This document shows, in pieces, positions 12,903 through 48,120 of a stretch of 64,000 nt of DNA; position 1 is the stretch's first letter, and each line of letters opens with the position of its first letter. The notes below the pieces were generated by a model that saw only the letters and a list, made by a program, of their open reading frames with translations, did no database searches and was not told where the DNA came from. Origin of the DNA: a virus; IMG/VR virus record IMGVR_UViG_3300037493_005286, positions 23,454-87,453 of that record, one strand, 5' to 3'. The position numbers and the translations under genes were made by a program.

Positions 12903-12905
12903 GTC

Positions 12906-12933: not shown

Positions 12934-12939
12934 ATCTAT

Positions 12940-16828: not shown

Positions 16829-16846
16829 ATATTATATTTATACCAT

Positions 16847-17164: not shown

Positions 17165-17168
17165 CGTT

Positions 17169-17834: not shown

Positions 17835-17838
17835 AATT

Positions 17839-18510: not shown

Positions 18511-18527
18511 ACAAATTTTATCGATAG

Positions 18528-18555
18528 TAGAAAAATTACCAAGTAACGTTATATT
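18528..18555 (+). promoter_or_regulatory. Sigma70-like promoter of gp41
   Basis: TAGAAA-N16-TATATT, 6 nt before GTG at 18562. Confidence 0.5.
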
Positions 18556-18561
18556 ATACAA

Positions 18562-19878: not shown

Positions 19879-19913
19879 TAAAATCTATATAACGCATAAA
19901 TACAAGTAGTTAA

Positions 19914-20330: not shown

Positions 20331-20620
20331 ATTTCGACGTCGTAGAGCAACCTTCACATAATATTGTAAAGGAAGAAACAGAACACTTATTATTATCCTT
20401 TTGTACCTTATGTACATTGCTTAAGGGTAAGAAGCTAAGTATTCAAAATGTATTTATCCTTGTATTGCAAGAAGAACGTCTACGAAATATATTAAAAGAG
20501 CTTTTAAGTGTTGATACTAACTTTGAAGTAGTTAAACTATTTATAAATTACGATCCACTTATATCAGTCAGTAAGTACGTAACTAAATTTCTAAATTCAA
20601 ATTCCAGTCTTAAACTATGA
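20324..20620 (+). CDS. Hypothetical protein
   Basis: 98 aa ORF overlapping both neighbours. Confidence 0.55.
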   Translation: MLNFDVVEQPSHNIVKEETEHLLLSFCTLCTLLKGKKLSIQNVFILVLQEERLRNILKELLSVDTNFEVVKLFINYDPLISVSKYVTKFLNSNSSLKL

Positions 20621-21264: not shown

Positions 21265-21339
21265 ATCACATTAAAATAATTTTATCAGAGCAGTATATCT
21301 GATACTAACTAAACACAACTAAGACAACCAAATAAAAAT
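21250..21339 (+). promoter_or_regulatory. gp32 promoter and structured/A-rich 5' leader
   Basis: TTGATT-N16-TAAAAT (21250-21277); hairpin TATCAGA/TCTGATA (21283-21304); A/C-rich unstructured tract to the ATG. Confidence 0.65.
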
Positions 21340-31456: not shown

Positions 31457-31481
31457 ATTAATTATTTAAGGTTATACAATA

Positions 31482-33485: not shown

Positions 33486-33565
33486 ATATAGTTCACTTGG
33501 TTATATAAAAGTGTCTATGATTATTTATGTTACCACTCTGTATTTCAACTCGATAGATTTTAAAC

Positions 33566-34486
33566 TTATACGTCTATGCTATTCTCAAAAATACCCTTAT
33601 CCGTAAGAGTTACTCTAAAGTAATCACGATCTACAATCTTATACTTACACCACGAAAAGGCATCTTTAAATGTTATTGGTATACAAGCATAATTACCGCA
33701 ACTCTCAGAAGTTAAATTTAATCTTAATAAGAAATCTTTCGCATCTTTCATTCTACTAACATGATTTGAAGTCTCATTAATAAAATTACGTAGTAGGAAT
33801 GTACTCATCGAACATGAAACGTAATTCATACGTACATCCTGTAACATGTAAATAAAACCAGTATTTGCAAATACAAATCCACATCGCATGCCAGCAAATC
33901 CTAGACTCTTACTAAACGTTCTTATGATGCAACAGTTACTATACTTTAATGCTAATTGATGAACTGACTCATAGTTAGAATATTCAATGTACGCCTCATC
34001 GATAATAACAAAATTATTATTGCATACAAGATACTCTACTTCGTCAGGTGTAAATGAATGACCATTATTACCGTTAGGATTAGCAATGTACAATACATCA
34101 TGATTGGTCAAGCAATCAATGTTTATTTGATTAAAATCACTATAGAATATTTCATTAAAAGCAGTACCGTATATTTTACAGTAAACACTAACCATTTCAA
34201 ATGTAGGTGATAGAATAGTAAATTTACTGGTACGTAACATACGTACTATTCTATCAATTAGTTCTGTTGACCCGTAACCTATAGCTAAATTGTTGATATC
34301 AAAATTATAATAGCAACTAATTATTTCATATAGTTCACGTTCATTATTATAGTTTAATATATCCTTATGATCCACATCACCCAACTTAACTTTTACTTGA
34401 TCAAAGAGTACACTATCGTAGCATACATTATTACTCAAGTCAATCAAAGAAGATGATTTATTTATATGCCAATCCGGTCGTCTCAT
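33566..34486 (-). CDS. PLP-dependent class I/II aminotransferase (HisC/CobD-like)
   Basis: GYGSTELI, PTFEM, YIANPNGNNG, IIDEAYIEY, RTFSKSLGFAGMRCG, FRVT. Confidence 0.9.
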   Translation of the reverse strand: MRRPDWHINKSSSLIDLSNNVCYDSVLFDQVKVKLGDVDHKDILNYNNERELYEIISCYYNFDINNLAIGYGSTELIDRIVRMLRTSKFTILSPTFEMVSVYCKIYGTAFNEIFYSDFNQINIDCLTNHDVLYIANPNGNNGHSFTPDEVEYLVCNNNFVIIDEAYIEYSNYESVHQLALKYSNCCIIRTFSKSLGFAGMRCGFVFANTGFIYMLQDVRMNYVSCSMSTFLLRNFINETSNHVSRMKDAKDFLLRLNLTSESCGNYACIPITFKDAFSWCKYKIVDRDYFRVTLTDKGIFENSIDV

Positions 34487-35306
34487 TGAATAGGTTATAT
34501 TCGGTTTCCCCTCTTAACGTTCCACACGCATTGCACTTATTACACGGTGAATGATTACGACCATTTAATAATTTAGCTTTAAATTCATTATATGCTTTTC
34601 CTAGCCAGACGTCTCGTATAGATTGTTCGCTTACATTCCCAAGAGTTAACGTTCTTGCCCAGTCATTATCACATGTAAGTACATCGCCATTCCAGTCAAT
34701 AAACAATTTATAGAATGGTCTATAGCATGGTTTTTGTATATTCAGTAAATTGTTATCAAAAGCAATTTCTTTTCGATTTACTATGTTAAGACCGTAATCA
34801 ATAGACGCATCATAATGATGGCGATATATCATTTGAATTGGTATATCGCCTTTAAGATTGTTAAAGTAAGCTGTAGCATCATGATCGTACATACTTACAG
34901 CTATAACATTACAACCAGCTTCATATAAAGAAGCTATTCGCTCAGCCGTTAGCAAATCACCATTTGTATTTATTTCAAGATACTTTAAATTAGTATTACA
35001 CACTCGTATTGCAGCTATACACTGTTCTAATTGTTGGTGCAATAACGGTTCACCAAATCCTACGAACCCTACATGATTGGTAAACTTAATATCAGCCAGG
35101 TCCCTTCCTATTTTTTCGCACAACTCAACAGATATTCTTGTATGTGTTGATGGATACAATTTAGAATTGCTACGTGGACAGAAACTACATTTACGTGTAC
35201 ACGATTCACTTGGATTTATTTCAACACTCTTAAGTGAGCTCAACAAGTCATACGGTGTATGTGTATTGTATTGACTGTTTCTTATATCTGTTATTGTTAA
35301 ACTCAT
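34458..35306 (-). CDS. Radical SAM enzyme with SPASM/twitch domain
   Basis: CTRKCSFC, GFGEPLLH, NTNGDLL; C-terminal CYRPF..IDWNGDVLTC..LGNV..CNKC. Confidence 0.92.
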   Translation of the reverse strand: MSLTITDIRNSQYNTHTPYDLLSSLKSVEINPSESCTRKCSFCPRSNSKLYPSTHTRISVELCEKIGRDLADIKFTNHVGFVGFGEPLLHQQLEQCIAAIRVCNTNLKYLEINTNGDLLTAERIASLYEAGCNVIAVSMYDHDATAYFNNLKGDIPIQMIYRHHYDASIDYGLNIVNRKEIAFDNNLLNIQKPCYRPFYKLFIDWNGDVLTCDNDWARTLTLGNVSEQSIRDVWLGKAYNEFKAKLLNGRNHSPCNKCNACGTLRGETEYNLFNETTGLAYK

Positions 35307-35527
35307 ACTAGATTATACTTATATTATATATTACTATACTCACAATTCTCGTATATTCTCGTAATTTTTAACTCAGTAACTACCTCTTTCAAAGTGGAGA
35401 GCCTTAGGAGAATCATCTTGAAACTTTTAATACTACAGTACTAACTAATATTATTCAATAGGGAGAGACACAATCTCTGAATCAATTAACCATATAAATT
35501 GACGTAAGCCCTGACTTAATGTAAATG

Positions 35528-36169
35528 TTATTCATAAATTTTGTATAGGCTTATGTATGCTTCTGCATAAGCTTTATTACATTCCATGCCACGAAAACGT
35601 GCATATGTTTCTATACCAGTTTGGCTTCGAGGATTAGGATATGTCTTTACTTCACTTTGATACATATTCATCATATGCCACTTGGACTTTACATCAGCTT
35701 CACTTAACGCTAGATATGTATTAGGAAAAAACGGTTTATAGCCCTGCGTAGTAGATGAAGGTACTTCATAACACAAACATTCAGCTGCCTGTGTATGTTG
35801 TATTCTACGAAAAGCAATTGCTGCTGATTTATGAACCGCAGTATGATCACTACTAATATCACCGTCAAACGGTATAAACACAACATCGGGGGTCACCTCT
35901 AAGTAAACCTTTTCAATATCTTTAATAAGATCAGACGATGATACTTGATCAAGTCGCTCATCCATATAATTCAACAAATGATATGTTATACCTGTTAGCT
36001 TATGTAGCTGTTGCGTATCGTGTATATTAGTAGTATACGATGAACTTCTATGCGCAACAATAATAACATGAATGTCTTTATCTAAATTTTGAGATATACA
36101 ACCACCACATCCGAGTATTTCGTCATCTGCATGTGGTGCAACTATAAGCATCTTATTGTAATTTTTCAT
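35528..36169 (-). CDS. PIG-L/LmbE-family N-acetyl deacetylase
   Basis: APHADDEILGCGG, DISSDH, YEVPSST, YQSE..YPNPRS, RG..AEAY. Confidence 0.92.
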   Translation of the reverse strand: MKNYNKMLIVAPHADDEILGCGGCISQNLDKDIHVIIVAHRSSSYTTNIHDTQQLHKLTGITYHLLNYMDERLDQVSSSDLIKDIEKVYLEVTPDVVFIPFDGDISSDHTAVHKSAAIAFRRIQHTQAAECLCYEVPSSTTQGYKPFFPNTYLALSEADVKSKWHMMNMYQSEVKTYPNPRSQTGIETYARFRGMECNKAYAEAYISLYKIYE

Positions 36170-37043
36170 CTATTTGCCTCCATATCCACTCTTGTAAATC
36201 TATACGTTGTTTAAAGTTTAGTATATTCATCGCTTTATTCAACTTAATACTTTTACCTTTATACTCAATAGTACCTGTATCATTATAGGTAACTTGTAAA
36301 TTCTTAACCTTAGATTGTATTATATCAATAATATCACGTAATGTATAGGAACGTATACCGTCAACACTGATAGTTTCATTACATGTACTATCGTAATACT
36401 CTACTACTGATGTAACAGTACGTGCTATATCATCTACATGTATAAAGTTTCTATAACCATCGCTAGAAATAGAGATAGTATTATTATTTTTAGCATTTCT
36501 TATAAACGTGGATATCGCAGTTCGTGGATTAGCATGCTCACCGTAGATTGTACCATACCGTAATATAGTATAATCTAGTCCAAAACATTGCTGATAACTT
36601 CTAATAAGCATTTCTCCGCAAATTTTAGTAGTTGTATACATACTAGTACCTACATTTACATTTAATAGCGTATCTTCATCCACTACATTACCTAAACATT
36701 CACCATAAACCCAGCATGTGCTTGAAAATACTATACGTTTAACATTATTTTTAACGCACGCATTCAATACATTGTGTAAACCTACAATGTTAGTTGATAT
36801 AGACAGCTCTGGATCGTCATTATTTTTAGTCGCTTCAGAAATTGCAGCAAACATATAAACTACATCTACATTTTTAAGTAATTCACTGAGCTTATCTGCC
36901 TCTACTGTAATATCACAGTGATCATACGGGTAATTGCCAATAGAACTACTAATATCTATAATTTGCGTGTCGTGATTATCTCTTAACATATCAAATACAC
37001 GAGACCCGATAAATCCATTACCGCCAATTAACTTAATGTTCAT
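36153..37043 (-). CDS. NAD-dependent epimerase/dehydratase (extended SDR)
   Basis: GGNGFIG, FSST, YTTTK (YxxxK), LRYGTIYG, RNFIHVDD. Confidence 0.92.
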   Translation of the reverse strand: MNIKLIGGNGFIGSRVFDMLRDNHDTQIIDISSSIGNYPYDHCDITVEADKLSELLKNVDVVYMFAAISEATKNNDDPELSISTNIVGLHNVLNACVKNNVKRIVFSSTCWVYGECLGNVVDEDTLLNVNVGTSMYTTTKICGEMLIRSYQQCFGLDYTILRYGTIYGEHANPRTAISTFIRNAKNNNTISISSDGYRNFIHVDDIARTVTSVVEYYDSTCNETISVDGIRSYTLRDIIDIIQSKVKNLQVTYNDTGTIEYKGKSIKLNKAMNILNFKQRIDLQEWIWRQIDEKLQ

Positions 37044-37854
37044 ATATAAATCTTTTTTGTTCGTTTATCATACATTGTAGTGTAGGTACCGATACGACAG
37101 GGTGAATAGTAGTTAAACTTCTATCTAAAGTATTGTTTATTATTGTATTACTAATAGTATTAGCACTTGTAGGTATTACAGTCATATTAAGACCGTATAC
37201 CTCATTTAACAAGCAAATTAATTCATACTTACTGACTATAGTTCGTGAATATACATGACGTATACCGCTCCAAAGCGTTATACCATCATTTCTTACCATT
37301 CGTTCAATTAGCTTAGCTACTTCCAACCCAGTTATACCATTCCAAAGACAATTAGTATAGCCAGTAACTTGTTTATTTGCATTTTTAAGAGCAAATTCAA
37401 GTAATCCGATTTTGTTATATCGTTCTTCACCAATAAAACTAACTCTCATTACTGTACTCCTTATATCGTCGTGACGTTTTGTCTGGCCATACCAGTCATA
37501 AGCATCATAAGTATCAGTTTCGTTATAATTACCACGATTCCCGCTATATACACAATCTGATGAAAAGTTAACCAGTCTACAATCAACTTTACTACAAATT
37601 TTATCAAGTCTTAACGGAAAATTATAGTTAACATCTAAAGCATGCTGATATGATTGTATATTAGGCTTAAGTAACCCAATACAATTAACTACAACATCAC
37701 CTTTACTTAAAGTTGAAGCAAACTTTCCTGAGTTAAAGTTATATACATTACACCGCGAACGATCATAATCTTCTACTGTATAACCGCATTGTTTAAAATA
37801 CTTTGAAACATATGTTCCAAGCATTCCATTACATCCTAATACGCGTATTTTCAT
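37033..37854 (-). CDS. NDP-4-keto-sugar reductase (RfbD/RmlD-like SDR)
   Basis: LGCNGMLG, VVNCIG, SSDCVYSG..GNYNE, YGQTK, SKYEL, DRSL. Confidence 0.88.
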   Translation of the reverse strand: MKIRVLGCNGMLGTYVSKYFKQCGYTVEDYDRSRCNVYNFNSGKFASTLSKGDVVVNCIGLLKPNIQSYQHALDVNYNFPLRLDKICSKVDCRLVNFSSDCVYSGNRGNYNETDTYDAYDWYGQTKRHDDIRSTVMRVSFIGEERYNKIGLLEFALKNANKQVTGYTNCLWNGITGLEVAKLIERMVRNDGITLWSGIRHVYSRTIVSKYELICLLNEVYGLNMTVIPTSANTISNTIINNTLDRSLTTIHPVVSVPTLQCMINEQKRFIYEH

Positions 37855-38462
37855 TTTTTAAATACTTTAAGTTGGCTAAGATCAACAGCATATTCTGCAG
37901 CAGCGCCGCATACTGTTTGCATACTACTCTTTGCTCTATAAAATTGTTCTATACCGCGCGCGGCTTGTTCAGGAGTCATATACATGTGATAGCCTAACAT
38001 ATCAACGTCAGTTTTTAAGATTTCATTGTAATAATAACTTGCTCGGCCATCATATCGTGCTTTGCGTAACCATTCAACTGCTGCAGCATCATCTGTTAAT
38101 ATCATACCTCCTTTTCCGATAGGTATGATTTTCTTAAAGTGAAATGATAGACAAACAAACCCACCATTATACATATCCTTTTCAAAACGGCATGCGCTAT
38201 CAACTACTGGATATGGAGATAATTGATAGTCACCAACCCAATCACTATCAACAAATTCAACATCATACCCAGCATGTATGATTGACATTGGAACCGATAA
38301 GTATGTTTTCTTGGGTACCTGTACTGGCTGATCTCCGTTCAAATACTTAAATGCTAAAAACAATGCATTAGAACAAGAATCAACGGCAACTGCATATTTA
38401 CTTCCGCAATATGCTGCAACCTCTTTTTCAAAAAATTCTACAGTATCCCAAACACCGTTCAT
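37851..38462 (-). CDS. Short DegT/DnrJ/EryC1/StrS-family PLP enzyme (N-terminal domain only)
   Basis: FEKEVAAYCGSKYAVAVDSCSNAL, TYLSVP, DSA, CLSFHFKK..IGKGGMILTDD, GYHMYM; only 203 aa. Confidence 0.88.
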   Translation of the reverse strand: MNGVWDTVEFFEKEVAAYCGSKYAVAVDSCSNALFLAFKYLNGDQPVQVPKKTYLSVPMSIIHAGYDVEFVDSDWVGDYQLSPYPVVDSACRFEKDMYNGGFVCLSFHFKKIIPIGKGGMILTDDAAAVEWLRKARYDGRASYYYNEILKTDVDMLGYHMYMTPEQAARGIEQFYRAKSSMQTVCGAAAEYAVDLSQLKVFKK

Positions 38463-38468
38463 ATTACA

Positions 38469-38496
38469 ATGTTATAATAATATACTTAAAAATCTA
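38469..38496 (-). promoter_or_regulatory. Sigma70-like promoter for the DegT-RfbD-SDR-deacetylase sub-operon
   Basis: TAGATT-N16-TAACAT, 6 nt before ATG at 38462. Confidence 0.5.
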
Positions 38497-39165
38497 CACG
38501 TTAAGTTTTTTTGGATCGCCGTAGTAATGAACAATATAGGGTCGGTTAGCTGTATTTACCTCGTGATTATTATAATTCCAACGCACATCTAAAAATTTAC
38601 AATGATCACGTCCAAGTAGTAAGTTGAATGCAACTTCATCACTATAGGAATATCTAGCACTTTCATATAAATTGAAAATATCTAAAAATTTTTGAGTGTA
38701 TTTATTTTGATTCCACTTCTTACAGTCAACTAGCATTACACCTGCATTAAAAAACGGCCATTCATCACGAATAACTATGGACTTTAATTGTAGAGTTGGA
38801 GGATACACTTCAAATGCACCCGCATGAGTTCTTAATCTGCTACACTCTACTACACCTAAAGTAGAATCACCTAAATCTGTATCATATAACTTTTTTATAT
38901 TAGTTTGACACACCGTGTCACTATCAAGAAATATTATTTTCTCGTTAAAATGTTCAAATATAAAAGGTCGATTTAAAAAAAACTGCTGAATCTTTCGCTC
39001 AATCTTAACAAATGTAAGATTTGAATTATTAATACTGTCTAAATCGCCAAAATGAAATATAAAAAATTCTATAGGACTATCGCCTTTGTAAAATTGCTTT
39101 ACAAAGGCGATAGACGTACATGTCAACTCATAGTAATCTTTACTTATTAAATAACAAATCTTCAT
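38494..39165 (-). CDS. Glycosyltransferase family 8
   Basis: KIIFLDSDTV, FFNAGVMLVDCKKW, DEVAFN, LDVRWN, IVHYYGDPK. Confidence 0.9.
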   Translation of the reverse strand: MKICYLISKDYYELTCTSIAFVKQFYKGDSPIEFFIFHFGDLDSINNSNLTFVKIERKIQQFFLNRPFIFEHFNEKIIFLDSDTVCQTNIKKLYDTDLGDSTLGVVECSRLRTHAGAFEVYPPTLQLKSIVIRDEWPFFNAGVMLVDCKKWNQNKYTQKFLDIFNLYESARYSYSDEVAFNLLLGRDHCKFLDVRWNYNNHEVNTANRPYIVHYYGDPKKLNV

Positions 39166-39956
39166 TTATACTTACTTTGTTCGTCAAGATAGGGTTTAGT
39201 GAACTTTGCTTCGCCAGAACCAGGCCATATATAATTATCTTGATTATAATTATATTGTATTGTATTCCAATTTTCAACCGTAACGTCACGCCAATTTAAA
39301 TCCTCAACATGACTTATATCTTCACACAGACGTATTGCAGATTGATCTAAATTATAAACATTCTCAATAGCAAACTGATCACTATCCCAGTCAGTCATAC
39401 TTTCTTCGGTCATCTTTTGTACGCGTTTAAAGAAGTTAATTGTTTTAACATTGTTAACACCTACTATACAACTACATTCCCAGCAGCGCTGTCGCGGATA
39501 CCTATCAGCATCAGTAGCTACATTACATAATACATCATACTGCTTAAAGAAGTCTGTTAACTGTGTAAGGTCTTTACGTACAATAGTATCAGCATCTAGT
39601 AATATTACTACATCTTCTTTTAACGCTTCTAAACAATACAATATATTTCTGTACCGTGTATTGCTTACAAAGCATTGCTTGTGTGATAGTAAATGCGCAC
39701 CATGAGGTCCTCTTTTATCTAAATCTGTACTTAATACAGTACCTGCTCTAAAATATTGACGCTTTGTTGATAGATTTAATTGCTCATTAACTATAATAGC
39801 ACCTGGATGTGAGTTTTGCAATAATTGAATTTCAGAAGCCGTACAATCGATTGCACGGCAGTGTACACGCAGGCACGGACTATTAACCGCGATGCTCTTT
39901 AAAAGATGTGACGAATGTTTAACGTAATTACTATCAGTTGAAAGTGTTATAATCAT
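39162..39956 (-). CDS. GT-A fold nucleotide-diphospho-sugar transferase
   Basis: STDSNY, LLKSI, ILLDADTIVRKDL (DxD), WDSDQ, IW..GEAK. Confidence 0.75.
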   Translation of the reverse strand: MIITLSTDSNYVKHSSHLLKSIAVNSPCLRVHCRAIDCTASEIQLLQNSHPGAIIVNEQLNLSTKRQYFRAGTVLSTDLDKRGPHGAHLLSHKQCFVSNTRYRNILYCLEALKEDVVILLDADTIVRKDLTQLTDFFKQYDVLCNVATDADRYPRQRCWECSCIVGVNNVKTINFFKRVQKMTEESMTDWDSDQFAIENVYNLDQSAIRLCEDISHVEDLNWRDVTVENWNTIQYNYNQDNYIWPGSGEAKFTKPYLDEQSKYK

Positions 39957-39986
39957 ACTAAAGATGTATTACTCATAATATACCAT

Positions 39987-40469
39987 CTATACTATAAAAT
40001 CTACTATTAAAACAACTCTCTCCTCGCAACTGAGATTCCGTGCGCTGTGAGTAATGCTATCATTAAAAACAAGCATCTCTCCTGCGATCCACCTCTTAAT
40101 ACTGTCACCCACGGTAATAGTTGCACCCTTAGGGCAAATAATACCTAAATGAGATCTTAATATATTTGGAGTTTTAGCACCAGAATGTGGATAAATAATA
40201 CATCCTGGCTTCATTACAGAGAAAAAGCATCTAGCTAAATTAGGTACATTCTTAATTAAAGAACTAATTAACGGACATTGTTGTAAATTTTCTTTATAGT
40301 ATTCACCCTTGTATAAAAAAAACACAGTAGACCATCCGTGGTTATGTATATGATCTTCACCAATAACTACTTGTTGATTTTTTTGAATTAGTTCAAATTC
40401 ACGTTTAATGCCTTCCCAGTTTTCCTTGAAGGGCTCTAAAAATGGATAATCTTCAATATTACTAAACAT
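39987..40469 (-). CDS. Aspartyl/asparaginyl beta-hydroxylase (AspH/LpxO) family Fe/2OG oxygenase
   Basis: NWEGIKRE, GW, CP, FFSVMKPG.IYPHSG, LRSHLGI, W..GE..VFNDSITHSARN, RVVLIVD. Confidence 0.9.
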   Translation of the reverse strand: MFSNIEDYPFLEPFKENWEGIKREFELIQKNQQVVIGEDHIHNHGWSTVFFLYKGEYYKENLQQCPLISSLIKNVPNLARCFFSVMKPGCIIYPHSGAKTPNILRSHLGIICPKGATITVGDSIKRWIAGEMLVFNDSITHSARNLSCEERVVLIVDFIV

Positions 40470-40474
40470 AATAA

Positions 40475-41089
40475 TTAAAAGGGTTCAATACTATCTGTAT
40501 TTCTAATAAATTCTGTAATAGCTATACGAAAACAACCAGGTAAGGTTTTATAACTATGCCAAGTTTTATCTGTTTCAGGTGCAAAAAATAAAGCTCTATT
40601 AGGAGCCCATTCTACTTCCTTAACGTATTTCTTATCCATGTCATATAAAATTGTGCCTTTTGAAATAATAGGTGAAACATAAGTTACAGATGTAAATATT
40701 TTATCCACACCATCATAATGAATTACATTTGAAGCTGCATCTTCTGAAAAAACCATTGTTATAACTGTTCTAATATCAACTGTATCGTATTTTCTATGAT
40801 TTGGAAAATACGATAAATCTGCTATATTAATACTTCTACTGGCAAGGCATTTTGTTGTTTTTGGAAATAATTTAAATTTATGTGTATTGCAACATTTCCA
40901 GCCTTGACGATCATTAATATTGCATATATTAAATCTATAACCCGTGAATTTATCTAGAGTGCCGTCTTGCATTTGCTTCATCTGTAATTCTGCAAATTGC
41001 GTTAATTCAGCTTCCATATTATTAAATAACTCTTTAGGGTAATAGTTATTAACTACAGCATGCGGCCATGGATATGTTTCTACTTTCAT
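40475..41089 (-). CDS. Fe(II)/2OG-dependent oxygenase
   Basis: PWPHAVVNNY, IHYD (HxD), KIFTSVTY, GTILY, WAPNRALFF, TWHSY, R. Confidence 0.85.
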   Translation of the reverse strand: MKVETYPWPHAVVNNYYPKELFNNMEAELTQFAELQMKQMQDGTLDKFTGYRFNICNINDRQGWKCCNTHKFKLFPKTTKCLASRSINIADLSYFPNHRKYDTVDIRTVITMVFSEDAASNVIHYDGVDKIFTSVTYVSPIISKGTILYDMDKKYVKEVEWAPNRALFFAPETDKTWHSYKTLPGCFRIAITEFIRNTDSIEPF

Positions 41090-41158
41090 CTTATATTGTT
41101 ATATTCACGTAAACTATTTAACTGTAAATTATACATTTGCAACAAGCATATCAATAAT

Positions 41159-41722
41159 CTACTTTAAATTAAATTCCCATCGATCATTTTTTAACACGCA
41201 GCCAAATTCAGAAAAAAGTTTATCGTAATCTGTTTTAAATTTATGATCAGCATCTACGTCACAAATAACGCGTTGACTCATTGAAGCTAATTGTAATATA
41301 TTAAAATTTTTAACTTTAAAAAACAAACAACACATTTTAAACATTAAACGTAATATTGACATTTTATATTTTTTTCGTGATAATAAAGTTAACCTATCAC
41401 GATCAGCACTAGTCTGTATATTACCTATTAAAATTTTATCTACACACGGGCAAAATCTAAGGTAACCAATATACATATTTTGTTGTATGTCTTCCTTATT
41501 GCTAAAAAATCTCATACATAATAATCCTCGGGTATAAAACGGTTCAGACTCACCACTTTCTATTGTTATATAGATATCACTACATTCTATATAATGCTCA
41601 CCTTTAAACTTATCTAAAAAAATTAAAGAATCAGTAATACATGTTACTATTTCGTTAACAGTTACATTTTTAATGCATAATCCTGTCTGCTTTAATGCGA
41701 ATATATCCTGGATTCCTACCAC
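41159..41722 (-). CDS. VirK/YbjX (DUF535)-like protein
   Basis: LRF...ILIGNIQ...FKTDYDKLFSEFG resembles the IGxLQ...DYDxFWxExG pattern of DUF535; start codon uncertain. Confidence 0.45.
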   Translation of the reverse strand: MVGIQDIFALKQTGLCIKNVTVNEIVTCITDSLIFLDKFKGEHYIECSDIYITIESGESEPFYTRGLLCMRFFSNKEDIQQNMYIGYLRFCPCVDKILIGNIQTSADRDRLTLLSRKKYKMSILRLMFKMCCLFFKVKNFNILQLASMSQRVICDVDADHKFKTDYDKLFSEFGCVLKNDRWEFNLK

Positions 41723-41735
41723 AATTTAACAAATT

Positions 41736-42170
41736 TTATTTAAGCTTAAACACAAACTCGTTATCCTTATTAATAGTTTTCCCAGTATAGGGATTATAAT
41801 CAACCAGTTGAGCATGCTTTATAATTTTTTTACAGTAGTAAGTATATATTTTTAAAAATCGCTTATTTGTAAAGTGGACATACATATACGTAGGATTTAT
41901 TAAACTAAAATGATTTGATATAGCAGTAAAAAGAAGTATGTAAAATTTTACAGGGTTAACGCATACATACACTGGTTCGTAACGTAAATTTATATTTCGT
42001 ATAAGTTCATCAGGTGTTTTTGCTAATGTTTTTACCTTATACCTAATCTCAGATACAATATCACCGTTAGGTAATTGTGTATTAAAACACATGAGTATAT
42101 AGCTGATATCACCTATAACAATAGTATCAAATACAGATTTTCTATCTTCTAACCAACTATTAATATTCAT
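41736..42170 (-). CDS. Hypothetical protein
   Basis: 144 aa ORF abutting the upstream stop codon. Confidence 0.5.
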   Translation of the reverse strand: MNINSWLEDRKSVFDTIVIGDISYILMCFNTQLPNGDIVSEIRYKVKTLAKTPDELIRNINLRYEPVYVCVNPVKFYILLFTAISNHFSLINPTYMYVHFTNKRFLKIYTYYCKKIIKHAQLVDYNPYTGKTINKDNEFVFKLK

Positions 42171-43109
42171 TTACCAAGTTTCATCACACCCCTTACACAT
42201 ACCTTCATATTCATTATTAGAATGATTTTTCAGCAATGACTGCCATGGTACGTCATTATATATGTCTGTTAACCTATTATGATTTATATTTCCCATTACT
42301 CCACTTCTTTTTAGGTCATGAAACGGACAAAACAATACATTACCACCTGTTACAATCCCACCACCGCTTCCCGGACCGTACGGGCAAATACCAGTACGTT
42401 TTCTTAAAGGTGATGTAGTAGGTATATGGCCTGCTCTATTAACGTTGTATGTTTCATTCACAACTAAGTTAGCATTTCTGTTTAATCTAAACGTATTTAT
42501 GTAATTATCTAATGCGCTGGATTGCGTTAAAGTGCATCTTTGAATAAATCTTAGCTTTAAGTTATCGCAATTACTGTATACCATTTCGAGTTGATTCAAA
42601 AAGCGTAAATAACCATCACGATTTGTATTAGATTGATATTCTTCAACAGTTTCACCATACAGTGAAATATCAAAAATAAGTTTTTTAAAGTGAGACAACT
42701 TTAAAATATCACCTTCATTTATAAGCAGTATATTACTCGTAATGGTATATTCTAAAACACGTTTATCCTCTTCAAGTATTTGTAGTTTAGTTATTATCTC
42801 TTTATCTAAGAACGGCTCTCCAATAGCTGGTGTTAAGTCAAAGTATTTTATACCACTATCCAAACACTTATCTACTATACCTTTAAATTCCAACGTAGAC
42901 ATTACTTTAAACTTACTATATTCAGCAATGTCAGTAATACTACCACGGCAGAAACTGCAATTAAGATTGCAGTTGTTTATGGTAATGATAGAAATAAGGT
43001 TTTTATTATTTTCTCTAGATGTAAATTTATCCTTAATATTACTTAATATAAATGTATTATATTTACTTTGTAACTGTAACGTCCGAGCATCCTGTTGTAA
43101 ATTATTCAT
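42171..43109 (-). CDS. Radical SAM enzyme with SPASM/twitch domain (paralog B)
   Basis: CNLNCSFC, YFDLTPAIGEPFL, ISLYG, NRAG, CPYG..LFC..MGNI..CKGC. Confidence 0.92.
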   Translation of the reverse strand: MNNLQQDARTLQLQSKYNTFILSNIKDKFTSRENNKNLISIITINNCNLNCSFCRGSITDIAEYSKFKVMSTLEFKGIVDKCLDSGIKYFDLTPAIGEPFLDKEIITKLQILEEDKRVLEYTITSNILLINEGDILKLSHFKKLIFDISLYGETVEEYQSNTNRDGYLRFLNQLEMVYSNCDNLKLRFIQRCTLTQSSALDNYINTFRLNRNANLVVNETYNVNRAGHIPTTSPLRKRTGICPYGPGSGGGIVTGGNVLFCPFHDLKRSGVMGNINHNRLTDIYNDVPWQSLLKNHSNNEYEGMCKGCDETW

Positions 43110-43873
43110 AAAATTAAGGGGGTATTATCCAATTCTAATATACATTTAATGAATGCATTAACCTTTTTAACTATATTTAATGAAAATTCCTTTTCCATTA
43201 CACTAGCGTATCGCTCTCTATATGTTGAACGCGTATCATCTTTCCAAATAAATTCATCACCATTCGTATATTGTTTTGTTTCATCAACAGGGCAATAGAT
43301 ATAATCAAAAAGAATAGAATTATCTCTATCAATTATTTTTTTATCATATATATTTCGTGTAAGAATTGCACGTGAACCAAATACTGAATGATTGGCTGTA
43401 GCTGTAGCAAAAAAAATAGTGTTAGCATATACATTACAATATAATTCAAATGCTCTTGGTCCAATTTCACCAGATTGCTTTTCACAATTTAACTGATCAT
43501 AATAATCTGGTACACTATGTCGGCATATTACTTTAACTTTATTAAATGATTTAAGTAATTTTAATTCAATCATTTGATTAATTAACTGGTAAAATGCTAA
43601 AAATTCCAATTGAGGTATTGTAACTATATTAGGATATTCGTTCTTATAATATAGCACAATAGCCCGATCATGATGTGGCGTTATAATATCTTTCTTTGAA
43701 ACTGTCCATAGCTTATATTTAGTGCTTAGCATATAATCATTTAACAAATCACCTACAATTACAATTTTATCTTTTGTAGTTTTTTCTAACAAATAATCAT
43801 ACTGCTTTTGGTTATATAAATGACCAATGTATTCCTTGGGTTGCAAATCATACTGCTTTAACACTTCCATCAT
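43106..43873 (-). CDS. Hypothetical protein
   Basis: 255 aa ORF coupled by 4 nt overlaps on both sides. Confidence 0.55.
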   Translation of the reverse strand: MMEVLKQYDLQPKEYIGHLYNQKQYDYLLEKTTKDKIVIVGDLLNDYMLSTKYKLWTVSKKDIITPHHDRAIVLYYKNEYPNIVTIPQLEFLAFYQLINQMIELKLLKSFNKVKVICRHSVPDYYDQLNCEKQSGEIGPRAFELYCNVYANTIFFATATANHSVFGSRAILTRNIYDKKIIDRDNSILFDYIYCPVDETKQYTNGDEFIWKDDTRSTYRERYASVMEKEFSLNIVKKVNAFIKCILELDNTPLIL

Positions 43874-44970
43874 ACAAAATAATTTTCAAGTTGACCAGTT
43901 CTTCTAATATCAAGAGTGGTACAATGGTGCGCCCCAGAAAACAATTCGCAATGCCGCATTGACGATCCTATAGCAGTTATACCATAAGGCTTTAGTTTTT
44001 GGTTTAAAACTTTTTCATATTCAGGATGACATATTATCAACTCTGGCGATACGCTAAACACATTCAACTCAATCTTAGTTGATGCTAAACGTATTCCATT
44101 TTTAACTTCACGATTGCGGTCAATTGGTTCTATCAATATCTTATCCCAAGTCTGCAATTGTTTTGGTAGCAAATGCCAAATATCGGAACGTGTAACTAAA
44201 CACAAGCCAGGGCGCAGTGGAAGTATACAACTGTCAATATGATTATCTGTTATGTTGCATTCCCAAATCTTATACCGCTCTCCCAAGTGACGCTGCAACC
44301 ATTGCACGCCCATCTTCATGTTCAAAGAACTTGCATTAAACAATAAATGTTCGCCAAAGCGCATTATGTTGGCAGCATCAAACATAATTTCAGGCCCACA
44401 ATCCATTGGCGAAGAGTGTCTAACCAATTGATCTATTTGTCCATCATTAGCTTGTAATATATGAGATATGTCAAATGAATAGTCAGTAAGCAGTGGACGA
44501 GGTGCACTTGTCCATTTAGCACCAGCATTAAAATATTCTAAAAACAAATGCTTTAAATAGTCTGTTTCATAGTAACGCCATCTACAAGATACCGGTGTTT
44601 CTATAATCTCATTACCAATCACTATGCTTAGGTCACGTACATTTAGTGATGGATACACAGCGCTGTTCCAATTTGGAGTCTTTACTTTTTGTATAATGCT
44701 TGGAGTCTTTGGGCGTCTTACGTGTACTCCCAAACTGGTCAATAACTCTGCAAAAGCTTCAACATCTTCATTGTGTTCAGCAATATAACGCTTATCAATT
44801 TGCGGATTAATTATTCTCTCATTTGCAAATTGAATGTTATCATGAAAGAACATCTTAAATGTTAAGTCTATAGCTGGTAGGGTTTCAGGTACTCCTGCGC
44901 CAACTATAACTTCTTCAAGTGGATCCCATTCATTGTGGCTGTTTACCACTGCGCTGTGCATGTCTTGCAT
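43870..44970 (-). CDS. L-arginine amidinotransferase (glycine/inosamine-phosphate amidinotransferase family); start may be 44961 or 44949
   Basis: VNSHNEWDPLEEVIVG, RD, WRYYE, FDAAN (Asp), HIDS (His), PLRPGL, GAHHCTTLDIRR (Cys): full catalytic triad. Confidence 0.95.
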   Translation of the reverse strand: MQDMHSAVVNSHNEWDPLEEVIVGAGVPETLPAIDLTFKMFFHDNIQFANERIINPQIDKRYIAEHNEDVEAFAELLTSLGVHVRRPKTPSIIQKVKTPNWNSAVYPSLNVRDLSIVIGNEIIETPVSCRWRYYETDYLKHLFLEYFNAGAKWTSAPRPLLTDYSFDISHILQANDGQIDQLVRHSSPMDCGPEIMFDAANIMRFGEHLLFNASSLNMKMGVQWLQRHLGERYKIWECNITDNHIDSCILPLRPGLCLVTRSDIWHLLPKQLQTWDKILIEPIDRNREVKNGIRLASTKIELNVFSVSPELIICHPEYEKVLNQKLKPYGITAIGSSMRHCELFSGAHHCTTLDIRRTGQLENYFV

Positions 44971-45854
44971 ATATCAGTATAGTTACTATTCACGTGATTG
45001 GTTACAACATTATTCCATGTATCAGTATTACGTAATTGTAATAAAGATGAGCCACTAAGATTACCAATTAGAGATTTTTTTCCTAAATCATTAAAAGCAC
45101 AATAATAATAATTATTATCACTACGAATTGCTCCTCCACTACCAACTCCACATGGACATATACCCTTTCTACTTACTGATATATTATCAGTTTGAACGCT
45201 TCCACCACGATTATCATTAACACGTCCATCATGTACAGCTACATTTTTCTTTGTTAGTAGTTTATACATTACTTTTCGAAAAGGTAAATCTATATCACTT
45301 AGATCCTCATTACGCAACGTTATTTCAATAGGTGTATCTATATCTATTAATGACGAAAAAGTATCAATGCACTTTTTAAATAAATCTTTATTTGTAAATG
45401 TCTTAAAGCTACTTATACCGCTTCCGTATAATGAAAGTGATAAATTTAACTTTTTGTGTCCCTTAGGAATGTTATTTACTGTCCCATTTGTCGTCATAAG
45501 ATAGCCTTTAACGCCTTCATGGTGTTCTAGGTAATTTAAATATTTATGTATATCTTTAACTAGTAATATTTCACCAATAGCTGGCGTTAAATCAAAATAA
45601 CATATACCTGATTTAACACATTCATCGACTGTTTTAATAAACGAGTCGTATGACATTGTTTGTAGTTCGTATTGGTGTACATTATCTATACTGCCCCTGC
45701 AACCGATACACGACAAGTTACATTTATCCGTAATAATAATATTAATATACTTAGAATTTATAGCATCTGAATTATATAAATTCGTACGAATACCGGCCCA
45801 TTTAAATAACTTATGCGATGATACTTGTACTAAAAGATCAAGTAAGCTTGTCAT
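44943..45854 (-). CDS. Radical SAM enzyme with SPASM/twitch domain (paralog A)
   Basis: CNLSCIGC, YFDLTPAIGE, TTNG, LSLYG, NRGG, CPCG..YYC..IGNL..CKTC. Confidence 0.92.
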   Translation of the reverse strand: MTSLLDLLVQVSSHKLFKWAGIRTNLYNSDAINSKYINIIITDKCNLSCIGCRGSIDNVHQYELQTMSYDSFIKTVDECVKSGICYFDLTPAIGEILLVKDIHKYLNYLEHHEGVKGYLMTTNGTVNNIPKGHKKLNLSLSLYGSGISSFKTFTNKDLFKKCIDTFSSLIDIDTPIEITLRNEDLSDIDLPFRKVMYKLLTKKNVAVHDGRVNDNRGGSVQTDNISVSRKGICPCGVGSGGAIRSDNNYYYCAFNDLGKKSLIGNLSGSSLLQLRNTDTWNNVVTNHVNSNYTDICKTCTAQW

Positions 45855-46564
45855 AAATATTTGTTAAACGGAACTGGTAATAAAATTGGCGGCCAGAGAG
45901 TATATACATCATCAATTGTTTGAAATGTCTCGAATGATGTGGTATTTACTGCTTCGGTAATCATATCTATAATAATATCAACTTCTTCAATACTGTCTGT
46001 ATCACCCTCTAATGTAAATTTTTCACGCTCTGTAAGTAATTTAGATATGGCTAGTTCGCCGGTCTGTTGAAGCTTCACTGAACATACTGTAACCATGTGT
46101 ATAATAATATCATCTGTACGCTGCTGAAAAGCGCCTAAATCTGTAACACCAAACTGCTTCATTATAAATATATCCCTTACATTTATATGGTGTTTAAGGC
46201 TATTAATATTAGGTCTTTGCTTATCGATGTATTTAATGTTGTCTCTTTTTACCAGAAACTGCTTATATAGCTCGTCATTACTAGTTTTAATTTCTTCTGC
46301 ACGTTCAATGACAAACTTATCGTAATTTTGTAGCTCGTAATAAGTAGGTAATACCATTACACCGGCTCGTATAGAGCTAATGCTAAAATTAGCATCTGTA
46401 AGATCAAACCATTGTTGTTCAGCAAAATCATATATACTAACTATACCGTTTTCTACTTTAACGTCACCGGAATGTATTAAAAATACATAATCTTCGCTAT
46501 TATAAATTCCATACAAGTATATGGAGGTTGTTTGTGTAATGATACCGATATAGCTTACATCCAT
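45851..46564 (-). CDS. Hypothetical protein, first gene of the tailoring island
   Basis: 237 aa; helical C-terminus ending WPPILLPVP loosely recalls tail-fibre chaperone ends. Confidence 0.5.
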   Translation of the reverse strand: MDVSYIGIITQTTSIYLYGIYNSEDYVFLIHSGDVKVENGIVSIYDFAEQQWFDLTDANFSISSIRAGVMVLPTYYELQNYDKFVIERAEEIKTSNDELYKQFLVKRDNIKYIDKQRPNINSLKHHINVRDIFIMKQFGVTDLGAFQQRTDDIIIHMVTVCSVKLQQTGELAISKLLTEREKFTLEGDTDSIEEVDIIIDMITEAVNTTSFETFQTIDDVYTLWPPILLPVPFNKYL

Positions 46565-46570
46565 ACCTCT

Positions 46571-46598
46571 ATTTTATATCTAGTTTTACTAAAATCCA
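46571..46598 (-). promoter_or_regulatory. Sigma70-like promoter heading the tailoring island
   Basis: TGGATT-N16-TAAAAT, 6 nt (AGAGGT) before ATG at 46564. Confidence 0.55.
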
Positions 46599-46612
46599 CA
46601 CAAAAAACTATA

Positions 46613-47155
46613 TTATTGTATATAGTTAAAATAAGCAGTGTTTGAACCGCCACCGTACGTAACATCAATATATTTAATTACTTCGTGATCCGCTAAATAA
46701 TCAGCTTTCATATCCGTTACCTCAAGTCTGTAGGTACCATCAAAAAGGTCAGGTATTGATACGTTAGTACCGACACTTATTACGCTAAAAGGCGACGGTC
46801 CAAAACCTTCTACTTTAATTTCTCGTGCACCGCCACCGATTTTATATGTAGTAGTTGAAGGTATGAAATTAATAATACCGTCATGTATTAAATGGTAATA
46901 TTGATCAGGTGTACAAGGAAAGGAGACTAACTTAAAGCCGAAAATGGTTGACCTATAAAATGAGCTCAGAGATAAATTATTTGAATTTAATGGTGGAACG
47001 TCACCCTCTTGGCCTTCCCGAGCTATAGCTGCGAGTTGGGTAATACTTAAATTATAAATACCGGGATTATAGTTTGCATTATCTACTATTAAATCTGTGG
47101 TGAGTGCTCTAACGTCACTCATTTTAATTTCTCCAGTTAATGGCGTTGCTGGCAT
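46613..47155 (-). CDS. Putative tail-fibre tip/adhesin protein
   Basis: N-terminal TPLTGEIKMSDV...LSI...LSLSSFY attachment-type motif; directly follows an S74-chaperone fibre gene. Confidence 0.6.
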   Translation of the reverse strand: MPATPLTGEIKMSDVRALTTDLIVDNANYNPGIYNLSITQLAAIAREGQEGDVPPLNSNNLSLSSFYRSTIFGFKLVSFPCTPDQYYHLIHDGIINFIPSTTTYKIGGGAREIKVEGFGPSPFSVISVGTNVSIPDLFDGTYRLEVTDMKADYLADHEVIKYIDVTYGGGSNTAYFNYIQ

Positions 47156-47156
47156 A

Positions 47157-48104
47157 TTACTTAAGTTTAGATTGTATATCTATTATTTCAAGTCTTAAAT
47201 TATCGTTTTGTAACTTTAACTCTTTAATAGATTCAATAAGTAATGGTACTATCTTTTCATAATTAACAGCTTTGTATCCATTTCCTCTAGTTGTTACTAT
47301 AGATGGTAAGACCTCCTCTATTTCCTGAGCAATAACACCGACATCACTACCTGTGTAAATATCTTGCTTGCTATTCCAGTCAAAAGTAACTCCGTTAATT
47401 TTAGATATCTTATCTAGAGGAGCTGTAATGTTCTGTATATTATCTTTTAAATTCTTATCTGACGTAGAATACGCAACAATGTCATTAGATCCATATATAA
47501 CACCACCTATGTAAGCAGCTCCTGTAGCATGAAACGTACCAGTTACATCTAAATTATATATCGGTGAGCCATTATTGATACCAACTTTACCGTCCGCAGT
47601 TATTCTCATTTTTTCGCCGTTAGCTACAAAAACTATCGGACCGTTATTTTGCGTTAAGGTCGTTGAACCTGTACCTAAATTTGTAATTGATAAATCACCA
47701 TTAGCTCCTGTGTCCTTTATAATTCTAGCATCATAATCTGGAGTTGGAGATGTATGAAAATCAATATACGTTGTACCATTACCTGTACGACCGTTACCAA
47801 CTTCAATAAAGGCAGCTGCATTACTTACACCATTAGCTAAAAGTAAATTACCACTAGCAGTAATATTACCTGTTTCTATACTGTTACTTGTTGCAATACC
47901 CGTATTAGTGAGATTGCCTGTAATTACTGTATTACCTGTAATACTAGCACCTGTATTTATACGTCCTATGGATAATGACGATGCATTACCATAACCATCG
48001 TATAATAACTGTCTACTTGAAGCGGATAGTGGTGCGCCACCAGCATGAATAACACCAATATACGTATCACTTATATTAGTATTTGTTAAAGATTGTATCG
48101 CCAT
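47157..48104 (-). CDS. Tail fibre with C-terminal intramolecular chaperone (peptidase S74)
   Basis: YSTSDKNLKDNI...INGVTFDW...GVIAQEIEEVLP...VNYEKIVPLLIESIKEL; TAAATA at 48110-48115. Confidence 0.9.
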   Translation of the reverse strand: MAIQSLTNTNISDTYIGVIHAGGAPLSASSRQLLYDGYGNASSLSIGRINTGASITGNTVITGNLTNTGIATSNSIETGNITASGNLLLANGVSNAAAFIEVGNGRTGNGTTYIDFHTSPTPDYDARIIKDTGANGDLSITNLGTGSTTLTQNNGPIVFVANGEKMRITADGKVGINNGSPIYNLDVTGTFHATGAAYIGGVIYGSNDIVAYSTSDKNLKDNIQNITAPLDKISKINGVTFDWNSKQDIYTGSDVGVIAQEIEEVLPSIVTTRGNGYKAVNYEKIVPLLIESIKELKLQNDNLRLEIIDIQSKLK

Positions 48105-48120
48105 AAAGTTATTTAATACA

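Follow-up and report, generated by a model that had tools for sequence, protein, structure and literature searches.

A conserved island of predicted amino- and guanidino-sugar tailoring genes in an uncultured T4-like freshwater phage

Gene content of the island

The 64,000-nucleotide stretch of viral DNA analysed here (the window) corresponds to bases 23454-87453 of an 87,453-base IMG/VR record (IMGVR_UViG_3300037493_005286; CheckV completeness 41%) and contains, at positions 33566-46564, an island of predicted sugar-tailoring genes. A first-pass annotation made from the sequence alone had described this island as 17 co-oriented and mostly overlapping open reading frames (ORFs), 12 of which carry enzyme motifs, and this description was borne out. 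The interval is filled by exactly 17 ORFs of at least 140 amino acids, all on the minus strand, to which all island coordinates given below refer. Nine of the 16 junctions overlap by 4-29 nucleotides, one abuts and six are gaps of 5-221 nucleotides. Solid family matches were obtained for 12 of the 17 products by Pfam, PDB sequence searches or paralogy, and the proposed StrB1-type amidinotransferase, BtrN-like twitch radical S-adenosylmethionine (SAM) enzyme, PIG-L, DegT-type and RmlD-type assignments all hold at family level. None of the 17 proteins contains a membrane-like segment (maximum 19-residue hydropathy < 1.6). The view of a single island stands for a 13-gene core, which is syntenic in related phage contigs, and has to be given up for a four-gene insert that is unique to this phage (39987-42170) and for one decayed gene (35307-35527), so that the island is composite.

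An arginine-type amidinotransferase of the StrB1/AGAT/SxtG family is encoded at 43870-44970 (phrog_25854, E 4e-40). Phmmer searches of PDB sequences returned full-length matches to StrB1 (1bwd, E 6e-57, residues 8-364) and SxtG (6u1r, 3e-56), and further full-length matches to HsvA (5wpi, 1e-47) and AGAT (1jdw, 5e-43). Residues D113, H244 and C350, which we take to be the catalytic Asp-His-Cys triad, were invariant in 27 sequences, and the RD, HIDS and HHCTTLD segments align with RD, HVDS and FHCATLD of StrB1. The predicted enzyme would transfer the amidino group of arginine, with an amino sugar as the likely acceptor. In a set of 5.8 billion proteins, 1360 relatives were found at E <= 1e-10. 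In a FastTree phylogeny of 142 sequences, the window protein and the viral proteins at least 50% identical to it form one clade of 24 leaves, and the more distant viral proteins, including that of cyanophage S-SCSM2R, form another.

Several neighbouring genes encode predicted sugar-modifying enzymes. The product of 35528-36169 is a PIG-L/LmbE-family de-N-acetylase (Pfam PIG-L 57.6 bits, cut-off 28.2) that matches diacetylchitobiose deacetylase in the PDB (E 3.5e-6) and carries at residues 12-17 a PHADDE motif, presumably the N-terminal metal-binding His-x-Asp-Asp motif of this family. The adjacent gene encodes a short-chain dehydrogenase/reductase (SDR) of the nucleoside diphosphate (NDP)-sugar epimerase/dehydratase family (36153-37043; Pfam Epimerase E 5e-39; YxxxK), the best PDB matches of which are epimerases (6zl6, E 7e-25; 6dnt, 6wjb and 4zrm), ahead of dTDP-glucose dehydratases. 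A second, RmlD-like SDR reductase is encoded at 37033-37854 (Pfam RmlD_sub_bind 53.7 and Epimerase 37.6 bits, N-terminal half), and its translation contains both GxxGxxG and YxxxK.

The gene at 37851-38462 encodes a shortened pyridoxal phosphate (PLP)-dependent sugar aminotransferase of 203 amino acids, here called mini-DegT, which consists of the large domain only (Pfam DegT 86.8 bits, in two stretches); its earlier designation as a DegT-type aminotransferase is right as to the family and needs correction as to the form. D88 and K111, presumably the pyridine-binding Asp and the PLP-binding Lys, were invariant in 25 sequences. The AlphaFold2 model (pLDDT 91) matched GDP-perosamine synthase, ArnB, DesV, QdtB and BtrR in Foldseek with a probability of 1.0 (TMq 0.63-0.69, TMt 0.33-0.39), superposing on the PLP domain of these NDP-sugar aminotransferases. 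At E <= 1e-30, 318 cluster representatives were recovered, and 127 of the best 150 are no longer than 270 amino acids; by these comparisons mini-DegT represents a shortened subfamily, a family of its own. Among the best 150 relatives, 20 exceed 300 amino acids, of which six are fused to a 404-amino-acid family (f4), one to a small 2-oxoglutarate (2OG)-like family (f2) and none to an amidinotransferase (fusion proteins P0147, P0167, P0170, P0250, P0255, P0274 and P0173). Family f4 had no match among PDB sequences.

Two glycosyltransferase genes lie next to mini-DegT. The first, GT8a (38494-39165), belongs to the GT8 family (Pfam Glyco_transf_8 E 4.7e-23; DSD motif), its nearest solved relatives being LgtC (1ss9, E 2.8e-7), the GT8 entry 5gvv and WbbM (6u4b). 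The second, GT8b (39162-39956), encodes a GT8/Nucleotid_trans-like GT-A glycosyltransferase (Glyco_transf_8 31.2 bits, cut-off 24.3; Nucleotid_trans 22.3) with a DAD motif in its translation and no match among PDB sequences. The GT8b family is multi-copy in the islands, with 59 members at 28 loci.

All three radical SAM translations contain CX3CX2C. The first enzyme, rSAM1 (34458-35306; Pfam SPASM 57.6 and Radical_SAM 42.1 bits), is a BtrN-like twitch enzyme that aligns with BtrN (4m7t) at E 3.3e-20 over residues 20-269. BtrN is the radical SAM 2-deoxy-scyllo-inosamine dehydrogenase, and rSAM1 is likely a dehydrogenase by this resemblance. Its gene overlaps by 29 nucleotides that of a class I/II (HisC/CobD-like) PLP aminotransferase (33566-34486; Pfam Aminotran_1_2 80.3 bits; NCBIfam hisC 125 bits, under the cut-off of 276). 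The second enzyme, rSAM2 (42171-43109), scored over cut-off with Radical_SAM (32.2 bits) and SPASM (28.5 bits) and matched BtrN over its C-terminal 87 residues only (E 0.0013). The third, rSAM3 (44943-45854; phrog_13987, E 7.7e-7; Pfam Radical_SAM E 0.0058, under cut-off), has a Cys-rich, twitch-like C-terminal part and is a paralogue of rSAM2 (33% identity, E 7e-46). SPASM is over the Pfam cut-off in rSAM1 and rSAM2, and the C-terminal auxiliary domain of rSAM3 is assigned by paralogy only. NCBIfam N_Twi_rSAM reached 42.6 and 30.5 bits on the radical SAM enzymes against a cut-off of 170.

The first gene of the island, u237 (45851-46564), encodes an acidic protein (pI 4.5) with no Pfam or PHROG family, the relatives of which in the protein atlas are viral hypothetical clusters only (score <= 0.87). 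The product of u255 (43106-43873) has no Pfam match and is possibly a single Rossmann-type nucleotide-sugar-binding domain; its atlas features point to polysaccharide-biosynthesis clusters (0.93). With its AlphaFold2 model (pLDDT 80), Foldseek gave no match at E <= 0.001, and VIA-align gave a best Z of 8.4 (3tov, GT9; rmsd 3.9, 154 residues aligned), GT-B C-terminal domains dominating the list. The domain may resemble the C-terminal half of a GT-B enzyme, a lead only, given these middling scores. Profile comparison of u255 with family f4 gave a probability of 0.4%.

The insert comprises the genes of AspH160 (39987-40469), u204 (40475-41089), u187 (41159-41722) and u144 (41736-42170). Iron/2OG oxygenases had been announced in the plural; AspH160 is one, a member of the Asp/Asn-beta-hydroxylase family (Asp_Arg_Hydrox E 1e-32), and the second candidate, u204, matched no Pfam family, its best PDB row being a 'putative hydroxylase' at E 0.74. 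AspH160 has no relatives in viral contigs and a single one, 35% identical, among the 5.8 billion proteins. The u187 product is weakly DUF535/VirK-like (DUF535 E 6.5e-4, under cut-off). None of the four genes was found by tblastn in the 81 related loci described below, and their region has the lowest GC content (0.29-0.30 at 40-44 kb). The decayed gene, at 35307-35527, is a remnant of family f18 with in-frame stops and an internal deletion; tblastn with 12 f18 proteins recovered the C-terminal 52-68 and the N-terminal 17-29 amino acids. In relatives f18 is intact at 221-243 amino acids, and in the nearest ones it lies between the PIG-L and BtrN-like genes.

Conservation and genomic setting

All island proteins were compared by tblastn with 81 loci carrying a relative of the amidinotransferase, namely 79 from IMG/VR and those of Campylobacter phage CP220 and cyanophage S-SCSM2R. 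In 32 close loci the amidinotransferase is at least 50% identical to that of the window, and in 47 distant loci it is 26-33% identical. The partner found most often in the 32 close loci was PIG-L (30), followed by GT8b (23), the SDR and mini-DegT (22 each), RmlD-like (18), rSAM2/3 (15), rSAM1 (14), the class I/II aminotransferase (11, adjoining the BtrN-like gene in these 11), GT8a (9), u237 (5, at the matching edge of the island) and u255 (4); these counts are conditional on the amidinotransferase and have no baseline from amidinotransferase-less control contigs, many loci are cut by contig ends, and single-query tblastn misses distant partners. Independent shuffling of the genes, named in the first-pass annotation as what would speak against a system, was not observed: the partners co-occur across the 32 close loci and are nearly all on the same strand as the amidinotransferase. 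All 12 conserved partners are present in three contigs (L004, L007 and L008), and the gene order of the window is kept in L004 and L007. De novo ORF families gave a recurrent order in many loci, SDR, PIG-L, mini-DegT, RmlD, amidinotransferase and glycosyltransferases, in which the BtrN-like gene and the class I/II aminotransferase form a neighbouring pair.

These partners bear on an explanation in which there is no sugar pathway at all. The radical SAM/SPASM enzymes, the hydroxylase and the amidinotransferase would then modify a peptide or protein side chain, as in ribosomally synthesized and post-translationally modified peptides, turning lysine or ornithine into a guanidino group, or the amidinotransferase would be a stand-alone guanidinoacetate gene. 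SPASM enzymes are mostly peptide maturases and weak NCBIfam rows for WgkB, HxsB and PapB were obtained; in addition, an ocean survey places a viral 'glycine amidinotransferase' within creatine biosynthesis (PMC11360552). Yet the only significant solved relative of rSAM1 is the carbohydrate/cyclitol enzyme BtrN, neither a precursor peptide nor a guanidinoacetate methyltransferase gene was seen, and the tightest partners of the amidinotransferase are the sugar enzymes PIG-L, SDR and mini-DegT. This explanation is highly improbable in our judgement, and because of the gene context of the amidinotransferase we favour sugar chemistry over the creatine metabolism under which that survey files such genes.

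In the distant loci, mini-DegT lies directly upstream of the amidinotransferase in 19 of 47 cases, and the partners include a UDP-glucose-dehydrogenase-family protein, a carbamoyltransferase, other radical SAM families, f4 and a small family that carries a 2OG oxygenase annotation in S-SCSM2R. The combination of genes appears virus-specific at the similarity level tested, because the best cellular relative of the amidinotransferase is 40% identical and each partner gene was present in only 0-5 of the 80 best bacterial amidinotransferase loci. The island is a real, conserved and virus-specific tailoring island, and many large genomes of aquatic phages contain such islands, 10-13 kb in length. 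Among 50,697 phage records, the set used for megablast and for the search of cultured relatives, the island had no megablast match and the close type no cultured representative.

The tail-fibre genes placed on both sides of the island by the first-pass annotation are indeed there. Downstream are two minus-strand tail-fibre/receptor-binding genes, at 31482-33485 (phrog_4492 tail fiber, E 4e-35; Mtd_N) and 30587-31456 (Mtd_N); the Mtd_N (major tropism determinant N-terminal) domain is common to these adjacent genes within 30587-33485. The upstream flank (46613-48104, minus strand) consists of a gene for a 180-amino-acid protein with no Pfam or PHROG family and one for a 315-amino-acid fibre protein with a Peptidase_S74 intramolecular chaperone domain (47157-48104; E 3e-16). 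Both here and in the nearest relatives, a co-oriented fibre gene block encloses the island. A further fibre-like gene (Gp53-like_C) was found at 59059-62445, and a 781-residue protein of the structural block (53756-56101) contains PATR autotransporter-passenger repeats. In several of the marine relatives L012-L023, the island is followed immediately downstream by FolE2, QueD, PhoH and QueE.

T4-like replication genes of the window include those for a DNA polymerase (phrog_262), UvsX and a DnaB-like helicase. The phage belongs to a deep uncultured T4-like lineage, since its polymerase is only ~31% identical to those of T4-like cyanophages, its closest relatives in culture. Words sampled from the island were found at a fraction of 0.97 in one sediment metagenome run, which is possibly the sample of origin, and 0.33 in one lake-water run, and no RNA run was among the sequencing runs listed as containing them. 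No repeats bound the island, and Rfam and tRNA scans of the window returned nothing. The T4 late-promoter motif TATAAATA was matched 13 times against 21.6 expected, with no intergenic match in the island, and within 31000-50500 neither sigma-70-like promoters (99 against 111) nor terminators (6 against 6.8) were enriched; the timing of expression is therefore not readable from these counts. Late-promoter-like motifs (TATAAATA) were noted at 3435-3442, 14652-14681 and 16835-16842, directly 5' of three genes that the replication region encodes on the minus strand.

A second glycan island is present on the same contig outside the window (contig 4755-14133), as one minus-strand row in which an SDR gene is joined by at least seven genes for glycosyltransferase-like proteins of the DXD/TcdA-like, FUT8-like, GT11, GT47-like (two), Nucleotid_trans and GT2 types. 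As it adds to the 13-kb island, more than 20 kb of the 87-kb fragment are given to sugar chemistry. The gene for QueC lies at 14717-15370 of the window, and those for QueD, PhoH, QueE and a Zn-protease-like protein at contig 16988-21550, upstream of the window; no TGT/DpdA match was found in the 87-kb fragment. A shared pathway of the deazaguanine genes and the island was considered and dropped, as the replication module separates the two in this phage.

Proposed pathway and glycan acceptor

The gene set, with its enzyme families, its conserved catalytic residues and its co-oriented co-occurrence in related phages, points to a virus-specific cassette that probably makes and tailors a cationic amino/guanidino-sugar glycan in the cytoplasm. 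At family level this chemistry is well supported by the predicted enzyme memberships, and we infer its substrates, order of steps and product as follows. The SDR and RmlD-like enzymes would oxidise or reshape an NDP-hexose or NDP-N-acetylhexosamine (HexNAc), and mini-DegT would add an amino group to the resulting keto sugar. Then rSAM1 and the coupled class I/II aminotransferase would convert a second hydroxyl into an amine in an oxygen-free manner, like BtrN and BtrS for 2-deoxystreptamine. In a third step, the PIG-L enzyme would strip the N-acetyl group from an N-acetylglucosamine (GlcNAc)-type residue after its transfer, leaving a free amine, and in a fourth the StrB1-type amidinotransferase would move the amidino group of arginine to one or more of the amines, giving guanidino groups. 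Finally, the two GT8-like transferases, perhaps with u255, would build and attach the chain, and the paralogous rSAM2 and rSAM3 would carry out additional radical-based modifications. Such a pathway would yield a cationic amino/guanidino oligosaccharide. Because no membrane-like segment was found in the 17 proteins, the route is proposed to be soluble and cytoplasmic, with no carrier lipid or membrane enzyme. The enzymes would be new tools, offering oxygen-independent sugar amination, a minimal DegT fold and a sugar-directed amidinotransferase.

Several observations weigh against this pathway. The amidinotransferase matched no Pfam or NCBIfam model at threshold. The NCBIfam equivalog rows for the other enzymes were all far under cut-off, and specific activities are not assigned for this reason. 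In our reading of the SDR sequence, no Asp-Glu pair was seen before YxxxK; this pair is the acid/base motif of dehydratases, and the first step is kept vague because the SDR lacks it. At 203 amino acids against ~360-400, mini-DegT lacks the small C-terminal domain of the DegT family and an internal segment, and its predicted aminotransferase activity is uncertain because of these losses. The island is moreover not intact, the conserved gene f18 being decayed.

As acceptors of the glycan we tentatively favour, at somewhat short of even chances, the phage's own virion proteins, most likely the fibres, which would be glycosylated before assembly. This choice is made because the island lies within the fibre block, no carrier lipid is needed, enzymes of this kind have been reported from S-SCSM2R virions and virion glycosylation has a precedent. 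In S-SCSM2R, another amidinotransferase and a 2OG oxygenase are listed among the proteins of purified virions (PMC12801897), and mycobacteriophage virions are glycosylated by phage enzymes (Freeman 2023, as cited in PMC12619734). The gene of this second S-SCSM2R amidinotransferase (L163, 213353-214246) adjoins KdsA/KdsB and 2OG oxygenase genes. A guanidino-sugar glycan on the fibres would, if true, belong to a cationic type as yet undescribed for viruses and would occur in a widespread group of aquatic phages. On virions or on the host surface, such a glycan would represent a new viral surface chemistry and could affect adsorption and host range, as well as grazing or immune recognition.

The location of the island, its nearest solved glycosyltransferase relative and its hydroxylase speak against the virion as acceptor. 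Only 10 of the 32 close and 2 of the 47 distant loci have an ORF of at least 600 amino acids 3 kb or less from the edge of the island, so the tail-fibre position is not general, and in the marine relatives mentioned above the island abuts FolE2, QueD, PhoH and QueE instead. LgtC, the nearest solved relative of GT8a, acts on lipooligosaccharide, and the best NCBIfam rows of AspH160 are the lipid hydroxylases OlsC and LpxO, both far under cut-off.

The FolE2, QueD and QueE neighbours of the marine islands, together with QueC, QueD and QueE encoded by this phage, could instead point to DNA, where a modified base would carry the glycan as a protection against restriction. Phage glycosyltransferases and epimerases do place mono- to oligosaccharides (Hex, HexNAc, HexA) on bases, as described in a preprint (bioRxiv 10.1101/2023.12.21.572611). 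In the clusters described there, the transferases have DNA-replication genes as neighbours, together with either a base methylase/dioxygenase or a ThyA-like enzyme (same preprint). The island has no methylase/dioxygenase, ThyA-like or DNA-replication partner, and in its phage over 18 kb separate it from the deazaguanine genes, which lie within the replication module and past it. The 87-kb fragment gave no match to Thymidylat_synt, Tet_JBP or TGT, a weak negative given that the record is 41% complete and that the Tet_JBP control matched nowhere. We consider DNA an improbable acceptor and retain virion proteins as the favoured one.

Comparison with known systems

The island shares its enzyme families with the streptidine and 2-deoxystreptamine pathways (StrB1, StsC/BtrS, BtrN, BtrD, BtrM). 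In aminoglycoside biosynthesis, a hydroxyl is oxidised by a BtrN-type enzyme, transaminated by a DegT-type enzyme and amidinated from arginine by a StrB1-type enzyme; GlcNAc is also transferred and subsequently deacetylated by a PIG-L enzyme of the BtrD type. By analogy, the best reading of the island chemistry is a streptidine/2-deoxystreptamine-like logic, and the amino/guanidino-sugar logic proposed in the first-pass annotation is upheld. Cyclitols, which it had also named, have to be dropped: no cyclitol-forming enzyme (2-deoxy-scyllo-inosose or inositol-phosphate synthase) was found in the 17 ORFs by Pfam, searched to E 5 for the five unassigned ones. The island differs from aminoglycoside clusters further in having no kinase, exporter or resistance gene, and in having a 203-amino-acid aminotransferase, three radical SAM enzymes, a phage carrier and a location among fibre genes.

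Such a set, BtrN-like, DegT-type, PIG-L and StrB1-type enzymes with glycosyltransferases, mirrors aminoglycoside tailoring and raises the question of a free, diffusible guanidino pseudo-oligosaccharide, made during infection, that would serve as an antibiotic, counter defences or carry a signal. The distant islands add a carbamoyltransferase of the NodU type by Pfam, which we take to be linked to TobZ, and to our knowledge GlcNAc-aglycone conjugates are the substrates of every PIG-L enzyme characterised. The S-SCSM2R genes were named 'antibiotic synthesis genes' by their authors (PMC12801897). Such a product would be the first phage-encoded pathway to an antibiotic-type small molecule, directed at competing microbes or phages or at host defence. 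However, the missing cyclitol-forming enzyme, kinase, exporter and self-resistance gene fit it poorly, and the two to five glycosyltransferases per island, with at least seven in the second island, fit a macromolecular glycan better. A free metabolite is quite unlikely on this balance, and a glycan on a macromolecule remains our preferred product.

Two cultured phages carry related modules, and the earlier designation of the island as an undescribed system holds in that no function has been reported in the accessible texts on either (PMC2853527, PMC12801897) and fails in that the modules themselves have been published. For CP220/CPt10, Timms et al. 2010 (PMC2853527) describe an interchangeable module with no assigned function, in which five radical SAM genes accompany a putative glycine amidinotransferase, and in the accessible text of a 2025 Campylobacter phage paper (PMC12398825) the radical SAM module still has none. 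In the T4-like CP220, the radical SAM genes surround a 34%-identical amidinotransferase, which falls on a long branch outside the close viral clade, and are followed by two nucleotide-diphospho-sugar transferase-like genes; the PIG-L, SDR, RmlD and mini-DegT genes of the island were not found there by tblastn. In S-SCSM2R (BMC Biol 2025), a shortened DegT-like gene, a radical SAM gene and an amidinotransferase make up the 'antibiotic synthesis genes', for which the accessible text gives neither a function nor a clear reason (PMC12801897). The co-oriented row contains a DegT-like gene annotated as AHBA synthase (195 amino acids, 38% identical to mini-DegT), radical SAM/SPASM and glycosyltransferase genes, a small 2OG-like gene and an amidinotransferase of the distant clade, 30% identical to that of the island; tblastn gave no PIG-L, SDR or RmlD match. 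No paper combining guanidino, bacteriophage, glycosyltransferase, aminotransferase and deacetylase was found in the literature.

Closest in theme among bacterial envelope systems is the Arn pathway, which puts 4-amino-arabinose on lipid A and has in common with the island an SDR and a DegT-type aminotransferase leading to a positive charge. The comparison bears on another possible acceptor, a host envelope glycolipid (lipopolysaccharide (LPS) core or lipid A), to which the same chemistry would attach the cationic sugar at the inner membrane face, thereby masking receptors against superinfection or keeping progeny off debris. We regard both this acceptor and this effect as rather unlikely. They would agree with LgtC as the nearest solved GT8 relative, with the OlsC/LpxO rows of AspH160 and the weak VirK/DUF535 resemblance of u187, and with the KdsA/KdsB neighbourhood of the second S-SCSM2R amidinotransferase. 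They would agree also with three bacterial arn-like operons that carry an amidinotransferase of the AGAT/StrB1 family (L107:1313-9207; L085:1243-6760; L111:5810-13019). In a Burkholderiales metagenome-assembled genome (MAG) the order is ArnT (PMT+Arnt_C), DegT, amidinotransferase, DedA/VTT, GT2, formyltransferase and SDR, and similar operons occur in one Proteobacteria and one Acidobacteria MAG.

The island itself is built differently from such envelope systems. It has no ArnC/ArnT/DedA-type membrane protein and no formyltransferase, its transferases are soluble GT-A enzymes, and no Pfam match to ArnC (GT2) or ArnT (PMT/Arnt_C) was found in it. Pfam and hydropathy likewise revealed none of the hallmarks of O-antigen or capsule loci (initiating phosphoglycosyltransferase, flippase/transporter, polymerase), and polyprenyl-phosphate and ligase genes are missing as well. 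The OlsC, LpxO and DUF535 rows are all far under cut-off, the four-gene insert that gives these hints is present in none of the 81 related loci, and a lytic phage could presumably alter only the LPS made after infection. No match to the GT2 or PMT_2 proteins of L111 was found in the 81 viral loci, and the arn-linked amidinotransferases are among the cellular sequences farthest from the viral clade. Since they are not close to that clade, they appear to represent a separate recruitment of the StrB1/AGAT family into an amino-sugar pathway. They constitute an independent parallel for amidination after a DegT-type sugar aminotransferase, and the gene content of these operons hints that lipid A, or some other acceptor in the periplasm, receives an amidinated amino sugar. 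This would be an undescribed cationic modification of lipid A or of a periplasmic sugar. No literature on arn operons with an amidinotransferase was found, the terms 'amidinotransferase', 'lipid A' and 'aminoarabinose' co-occurring by chance only.

For virion proteins, the acceptor that we favour, the nearest comparison is with virus-encoded glycosylation of virions, in which virus glycosyltransferases act on structural proteins, as on the capsid and tail tube of mycobacteriophages (Freeman 2023, via PMC12619734). The island differs from these systems in that no glycan has been shown on the virion of a T4-like aquatic phage. In giant viruses, amino-sugar pathways and glycosyltransferases decorate the fibrils in the cytoplasm. 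We know of no amidinotransferase or radical SAM step in virion glycosylation of either mycobacteriophages or giant viruses. Taken with CP220 and S-SCSM2R, this kind of island has been noticed before and not characterised; the present one is a close-type variant of it, distinguished by PIG-L, two SDRs, mini-DegT and the BtrN-like/aminotransferase pair, and the three bacterial arn-like operons carrying an amidinotransferase are new.

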